Assembly: GCF_044324785.1 (NCBI RefSeq)
Contig: NZ_CP172127.1
DNA: 64,000 nucleotides
Strand: one strand, 5' to 3'
Source of the DNA: Escherichia coli
GTDB taxonomy: Bacteria; Pseudomonadota; Gammaproteobacteria; Enterobacterales; Enterobacteriaceae
Positions 58,027 to 58,120 of this stretch are shown in pieces. The stretch's first letter is position 1, and every line of letters starts with the position of its first letter. Both the position numbers and the translations under genes were made by a program. The notes below the pieces were generated by a model. That model saw only the letters and a list, made by a program, of their open reading frames with translations. It searched no databases and had not been told where the DNA came from.

Positions 58027-58045
58027 ATTAATGATAACCATTTGC
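58027..58045 (+). promoter_or_regulatory. Fur box-like site in sitA promoter
   Basis: ATTAATGATAACCATTTGC. Confidence 0.45.
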
Positions 58046-58066
58046 ATTTGTATAGATTATGCTATA

Positions 58067-58088
58067 AAACATAGCCGTTGCTATGTTT
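58067..58088 (+). promoter_or_regulatory. MntR box in sitA promoter
   Basis: Perfect palindrome AAACATAGC-CGTT-GCTATGTTT, 33 bp upstream of sitA ATG. Confidence 0.65.
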
Positions 58089-58120
58089 GTTCTAATTTTG
58101 CTCACTATAGGTACTGAATT

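Follow-up and report, generated by a model that had tools for sequence, protein, structure and literature searches.

The 94 bp at positions 58027-58120 of the window (the whole 64,000-nucleotide stretch of E. coli DNA analysed here) are best read as the promoter and operator region of the sitABCD operon, controlled by MntR and probably by Fur. We put the probability of this reading at about 0.85, with protein binding, the -35 and -10 hexamers and the start site all predicted from the letters. MntR control of the promoter is supported by the sequence comparisons below, and Fur control is probable. An earlier note on this DNA had described the region as expected biology, useful as a check on the annotation, and this was borne out: the operator was found where it was expected, upstream of sitA. 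The observation is correct but already known, and it introduces no new kind of element. Both sitABCD and mntH are repressed by Mn-MntR and by Fe-Fur (PMC3852070, PMC8970401), dual Mn/Fe repression of sit has already been published for Salmonella and Shigella, and a Salmonella PsitA-gfp reporter was induced only with Fe2+ and Mn2+ at or below 0.1 uM (PMC13320715). The additions made here are modest: a second MntR-type box with strict 19-bp phasing, an assignment of the promoter, an allele-specific weakening of the Fur and distal boxes, and an IS junction.

The open reading frame that starts at 58121, directly 3' of the 94-bp stretch, has 304 codons and is the first gene of the operon, preceded by a possible ribosome-binding sequence.

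58109..58112, + strand: weak Shine-Dalgarno-like AGGT, 8 nt 5' of the ATG, read from the sequence
58121..59035, + strand: sitA, periplasmic Mn/Fe-binding protein (PF01297; 97% identity to a cluster named SitA [Escherichia coli])
59035..59862, + strand: sitB, ABC ATPase (NF011630, 586.6 bits against a cut-off of 393)
59859..60716, + strand: sitC, permease
60713..61591, + strand: sitD, permease

NF011630 is the NCBIfam equivalog for a manganese/iron ABC transporter ATP-binding protein, and sitA, sitB, sitC and sitD are the RefSeq names given to the genes on an identical DNA segment of E. coli chromosomes. A PF01297 binding protein, an ATPase and two permeases form the four-gene set of a SitABCD/YfeABCD-type Mn/Fe ABC importer. 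The orthologues carry GGAG or GAGG at the position matching AGGT 58109-58112. The position of the operator in turn supports the sitABCD call and the frame and start assigned to sitA. The mntR gene itself is absent from the 64 kb window and is present in 5421 of 5426 complete E. coli genomes. It is very probable that the sit operon is carried on an IS-rich E. coli pathogenicity-type island and that 58027-58120 is its sigma-70 promoter/operator region.

The proposed regulatory elements lie upstream of the sitA start codon in the following order.

58027..58045, no strand assigned: Fur-like box ATTAATGATAACCATTTGC, 14/19 to the consensus, its 3' end overlapping the putative -35
58041..58046, + strand: putative -35 TTTGCA, predicted, at the 3' edge of the Fur-like block
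58052..58065, no strand assigned: distal, degenerate MntR-type core ATAGA-TTAT-GCTAT, 9/10, its right half supplying the start of the -10
58063..58068, + strand: putative -10 TATAAA, predicted, between and overlapping the two MntR-type boxes and beginning with the TAT of the distal GCTAT
58067..58088, no strand assigned: proximal, putative MntR box, the perfect palindrome AAACATAGC-CGTT-GCTATGTTT, with its core at 58071-58084

Of the sigma-70-like pairs in the window allele, TTTGCA-16-TATAAA scores highest. A pair at the same positions was among the top three candidates in 24 of the 27 sit promoters compared, with TATnnn conserved at the -10 position, 11 nt from the anchor of the alignment (anchor +11), and in Erwinia endophytica the pair reaches 10/12 (TTGTCA-17-TATATT). 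Other pairs, ATGCTA-17-TATGTT in the proximal box and others 3' of that box, were rejected for lower scores or impossible spacing.

With one box on the -35, the next on the spacer and -10, and the third at the -10 edge and start site, the promoter would have the classical layout for repression by occlusion. The Fur-like box (58027-45) would cover the -35 (58041-46), the distal MntR-type box (58052-65) would lie in the spacer and provide the -10 (58063-68), and the proximal box (58067-88) would cover the edge of the -10 along with the start site, predicted at about 58075. Under manganese sufficiency the proximal box, and probably the distal box too, would be bound by Mn-MntR dimers; under iron sufficiency Fe-Fur would bind the upstream box. 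Either Mn-MntR or Fe-Fur alone would block RNA polymerase, and the operon would be on only when both metals are scarce. The genes, the half-sites identical to those of mntH, the positional conservation and the published regulation of sitABCD all agree with the dual iron and manganese repression that the earlier note had suggested.

The strongest element is the proximal palindrome. As had been claimed, a perfect MntR-type palindrome lies upstream of sitA: AAACATAGCCGTTGCTATGTTT, a perfect 9+4+9 repeat at 58067-58088, with 32 nt between it and the sitA ATG at 58121 (the 33 bp given earlier is correct as a difference of coordinates). A search of all 64 kb for AAACATAGCNNNNGCTATGTTT, tolerating up to 3 mismatches, finds this one site, where shuffles would give 0.03. 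Perfect inverted repeats of 9 bp around a 4-nt loop are in general not rare, at a calculated 64000 x 4^-9 = 0.24 per window. The palindrome is judged non-random because its half-sites are those of the K-12 mntH palindrome, not because of the inverted repeat alone.

The mntH promoter, read from the K-12 genome sequence as ...aatttgataatcattctcgtttggcatagcatgAAACATAGCaaagGCTATGTTTtagaggcacaagATG, has half-sites identical to AAACATAGC and GCTATGTTT with a 4-nt spacer, and like the window palindrome it stands near the start codon of a manganese importer gene. A Fur-like box lies about 15 nt upstream of the palindrome, in the same order as in the window. The mntH palindrome is reportedly the MntR operator of the 2001 work of Patzer and Hantke, which is reported to have placed the mntH promoter under dual Fe-Fur and Mn-MntR repression. 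Such dual repression of K-12 mntH is also described elsewhere (PMC3852070, PMC8632737), with separate MntR, Fur and OxyR sites and with MntR boxes that are short inverted repeats (PMC8632737; bioRxiv 10.1101/2025.10.14.682371). The two promoters differ in the spacer of the palindrome, AAAG in K-12 mntH and CGTT in the window, and in the distance from the end of the box to the ATG, which is 12 nt in K-12 mntH and 32 nt in the window. Unlike sit, mntH has a single palindrome, with an extra CATAGC half-site 10 bp upstream and no second core at 19 bp (L002 2220-2260).

The segment 58067-58088 therefore carries the ATAGC-N4-GCTAT core and the flanks found in the E. coli mntH promoter, which is the sequence signature of an MntR operator. 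The same core occurs at the start of K-12 mntS/rybA and twice upstream of mntP, and both mntS and mntP have been named as other MntR-controlled genes (PMC4361602, PMC9806134). The match to known operators that had been claimed thus held when compared with the K-12 genome sequence, with equal half-sites at mntH and the core also at mntS and mntP. A search of the full text of the open literature for the operator strings matched only unrelated papers.

Instead of binding a protein, a palindrome of this kind could work at the RNA level, folding into a hairpin that ends transcription arriving from upstream (an intrinsic terminator) or attenuates it in the sitA leader. A lenient terminator scan does flag 58067-58088, followed by GTTCTAATTT, and the 9-bp stem is present in the minimum-free-energy fold. 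However, the stem has G-C pairs at only 3 of its 9 positions, the T run of the tail is interrupted, and the fold, at -10.9 kcal/mol, has a z of -1.06, with 31 of 200 shuffles as good; the candidate intrinsic terminator was rejected on these features. The half-site sequence is conserved without compensatory changes, and the variants found in the ST131 type (GCTATATTT) and in pECOS88 (AAACATAGT) break the pairing. The predicted start site also falls within the left arm of the stem. There was no match to an Rfam family: a scan of 57400-58300 found no riboswitch or leader RNA family, the hit to RF02937 being a sub-threshold chance match (18.8 bits against 58.6). We consider the hairpin reading extremely improbable, and treat the palindrome as a protein operator.

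The earlier note had described one MntR box separated by a gap from the Fur-like box. The box is there, but the count of one is not correct, as the supposed gap at 58052-58065 holds a degenerate second MntR-type box. This became visible on comparing sit promoters from different species. A SitA scan of a genome collection gave the best 80 loci, and the upstream regions of 22 Enterobacterales loci and five E. coli alleles were compared. Two ATAGC-N4-GCTAT cores stand exactly 19 bp apart in all 27 of these promoters, and the tandem is found in none of the 58 non-Enterobacterales sit loci among the best 80. The distal core was used as the alignment anchor; neither the proximal core at +19 nor the position of the Fur-like block was imposed. 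Over the 22 species, column information is 0.23 bit far upstream, 0.94 bit in the Fur-like block, 1.75-1.95 bits in the four half-sites and 0.5-0.7 bit in the spacers; within the proximal palindrome the half-sites hold 1.8-1.9 bits per column, compared with 0.7 in the spacer.

Cores with at most one mismatch occur four times in the whole window, and two of the four are in the sit promoter. The calculated chance of such a core at one fixed position is about 3 x 10^-5. Against the distal box as an MntR site stand the mismatch in its core and the chance that its conserved right half has been kept only as part of the -10.

Salmonella fell outside both the best 80 loci and the best 120 protein clusters, and Citrobacter loci were used as the nearest stand-ins. 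Their sit promoters show the same layout as the window, with a Fur box, a distal box and a proximal box. The sitABCD operon of Salmonella and Shigella is orthologous to the one in the window, and its repression by MntR and Fur has been published (Ikeda 2005 and Runyen-Janecky 2006, as cited through PMC3852070, PMC9315381, PMC8970401 and PMC13320715); an OxyR element has also been mentioned for Salmonella sit (PMC3852070). The closest likeness to the tandem in K-12 is the mntS(rybA)-mntR intergenic operator, which also has cores 19 bp apart (L090 2555-2595), but which sits between divergent genes and regulates one for a small protein/sRNA. The two sites at K-12 mntP are 40 bp apart (L091 2266-2327).

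Public metagenome contigs were also scanned, blind to their gene content, for pairs of perfect cores at the 19-bp spacing. This gave at least 120 loci, whose flanks were assigned by blastx against SitA, MntH, MntS, MntR and MntP. Among the 120 loci listed, 102 were at manganese genes: 72 at sitA, 25 in the mntS/mntR intergenic region, which is thus the second most frequent context, three at mntH and two at mntP. Three of the other 18 are truncated sit-type contigs and the remainder appear unrelated. The motif is therefore highly specific for manganese-homeostasis genes, and this gives independent support for the assignment to MntR. The presence of the tandem in 22 of 22 Enterobacterales sit loci, against 0 of 58 others, ties it to these genes as well.

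Some of the loci away from manganese genes recur. L102 (8112-8144) and L144 (13733-13765) each have a perfect tandem ATAGC-N4-GCTAT, separated by 25-27 nt from the gene of a conserved, predicted membrane protein of 114 amino acids without a Pfam match. The tandem belongs to a conjugative element that also encodes a relaxase and a VirD4-like protein, and it is probably the operator of an unrelated regulator outside the MntR regulon. At L130, L159 and L203, tandem ATAGCAYTTGCTAT repeats adjoin a conserved 57-aa ORF (MT..E.Q..AFYQ.TGLSFLG...), again with no Pfam match; this locus is recurrent and looks unrelated to manganese genes.

The association with manganese genes also bears on a different reading of the proximal box, that it is chiefly a type 2 IscR site activating sit under Fe-S cluster stress, as has been claimed for Klebsiella pneumoniae. 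IscR binding to the K. pneumoniae PsitA depended on a 26-bp 'R2' box (PMC4169559). By primer mapping we place that box at ATAGCAATGGCTATAAACGCTGGGAA, and it starts with the entire proximal MntR core; in Klebsiella-type sit promoters from metagenomes (L098, L101, L108 and L109) it starts with ATAGC-AATG-GCTAT. The IscR site of that paper and the MntR operator therefore share the same DNA, an overlap that adds some value to an otherwise expected result. However, R2 matches the IscR consensus at 16 of 26 positions by the count of PMC4169559 itself, and the conserved signal is the symmetric ATAGC-N4-GCTAT core, which occurs twice. The presence of the same tandem motif at mntS/mntR, mntH and mntP fits MntR and not IscR. 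A mainly IscR-dependent box is thus very unlikely, and IscR may be an additional regulator of sit. We retain MntR as the main reader of the box because the motif is symmetric, duplicated and specific to manganese genes.

The Fur-like box had been placed 20 bp upstream of the palindrome; it is present at 58027-58045, with 21 nt between the two. Against the consensus GATAATGATAATCATTATC, 19 bp made of three GATAAT-like hexamers, it has mismatches at 58027, 58028, 58038, 58043 and 58044. A custom scan with this consensus, allowing up to 6 mismatches, found no match with 3 or fewer in the 64 kb window and three loci with 5 or fewer, upstream of iha, upstream of sitA and inside sodC. Shuffled windows gave about 1.1 five-mismatch matches per 64 kb on both strands, so a match of 14/19 is within what chance alone would give. 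The weight given to the box comes from its position and conservation and not from the match score alone: it lies over the putative -35 of a metal-uptake gene, in a block whose position is conserved in Enterobacterales sit promoters. For the Fur half of the proposed dual repression, position and conservation thus hold, while the box itself is weak and its function in the window allele is presumed.

The best match to the Fur consensus in the window is GATAATGAGAATGATTTGC at 30189-30207, 15/19 with 4 mismatches, about 50 nt upstream of the start of iha, a siderophore receptor/adhesin gene, as placed by the ECCNB12-2 annotation. It is likely to be a genuine Fur box and serves as a positive control. 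The 19-mer at 54288-54306, 14/19 and palindromic on both strands, is inside the sodC coding sequence and is probably a chance match. That two of the three matches are directly 5' of metal-uptake genes, iha and sitA, is consistent with these two being real Fur boxes.

It is possible, though we think it unlikely, that MntR control is real and the Fur-like box of the window allele has decayed or is a chance match, with no useful Fur binding and with the iron response passing through MntR or lost. The low score of 14/19, at about the frequency expected per window, would fit this. So would the two changes that take the box further from the consensus than in other E. coli alleles, and the IS-associated junction that stands in place of the 5' flank at 58020-28. 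For the K. pneumoniae sitA promoter, a Fur titration assay gave a negative result (PMC4169559), and in Salmonella Fe2+ can act through MntR without Fur (PMC3852070). On the other side, the core of the box, AATGATAA, is intact, and the GATAACCATTT variant occurs naturally in the sit promoters of Enterobacter cloacae and Lelliottia. The block keeps its position over the -35 in more than 20 species, and Fur-dependent repression of sit has been shown genetically in Salmonella (PMC8970401). We therefore keep Fur as the probable second regulator of the promoter.

The sit operon is found in 1683 of 5426 complete E. coli genomes and on about 975 plasmids, mostly of the ColV type, and the exact promoter allele of the window is found in 53 of the 5426 genomes. 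In the other E. coli alleles, the ST131-type chromosomal allele and those of the ColV plasmids pAPEC-O2-ColV and pECOS88, the block from 58028/29 to the ATG is 91-98% identical and the boxes are at equal positions. The differences fall in the regulatory elements. At the same place as the 14/19 Fur box of the window, the other E. coli alleles have boxes of 15-17/19, with the ST131 type (GCTAATGATAATCATTTTC) at 17/19; compared with the common alleles, the window has C at 58038 (T>C) and G at 58044. The spacer between the -35 and -10 is one T shorter in the window, 16 against 17 elsewhere (pECOS88 differs). The fifth base of the distal core is A in the window, C in CFSAN061770 and pECOS88, and G in ST131, SK0189, SCU-123 and pAPEC-O2-ColV. 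The proximal box is perfect in the window and has one mismatch each in the ST131 type and pECOS88, the two variants given above. That E. coli sit alleles differ at exactly the operator bases could tune the metal response of a virulence-associated transporter.

The window allele resembles all the other E. coli sit alleles only from 58028/29 onwards, with a sharp boundary at the 5' edge of the Fur-like box. The upstream flank common to the other alleles, chromosomal or ColV (...CAGCAGGAAACAACCTAATCCCTGTTTTGGGCC...), is replaced in the window allele. What stands there is the end of an insertion sequence.

56740..58019, - strand: frameshifted IS110-family transposase pseudogene with its 5' non-coding left end (ORFs 56740-57627 and 57548-57886), outside the promoter

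Similarity to other IS110-family left ends runs to 58019, leaving 8 nt (58020-27) before the block conserved in sit alleles. As every other allele has a distinct flank and the window has the IS110 left end, all of the DNA 5' of the Fur box has been exchanged in an IS-associated rearrangement. A sigma-70-like pair, TTAACA-17-TACATT (9/12), lies within that left end, at 57906-57934 on the + strand, and is aimed at sitA. It could in principle drive read-in transcription past occlusion of the -35; promoter-like matches in the region around it were no more frequent than in shuffles.

Together, the phasing and the allele differences allow a more speculative picture, which we think possible but unlikely. 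Enterobacterial sit promoters may use paired MntR operators, their centres 19 bp apart and strictly phased around the -10, an arrangement also present at mntS-mntR and absent from E. coli mntH, and this may give a steeper or cooperative repression by manganese. The allele in the window, with a perfect proximal box, weak distal and Fur boxes and an IS-replaced flank, may have moved from dual Fe/Mn control to mainly manganese control.

The island around the operon is itself rich in insertion sequences. Between about 24000 and 64000 the window holds iha, remnants of an integrative-conjugative element, a group II intron, sodC and many transposase pseudogenes. It was compared with ECCNB12-2 (NZ_CP033635.1, 2572000-2622000), with which collinearity is incomplete upstream of about 54000. 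On the 3' side of sit are IS1 and ISL3 remnants, followed by the aerobactin receptor gene iutA just beyond the end of the window.
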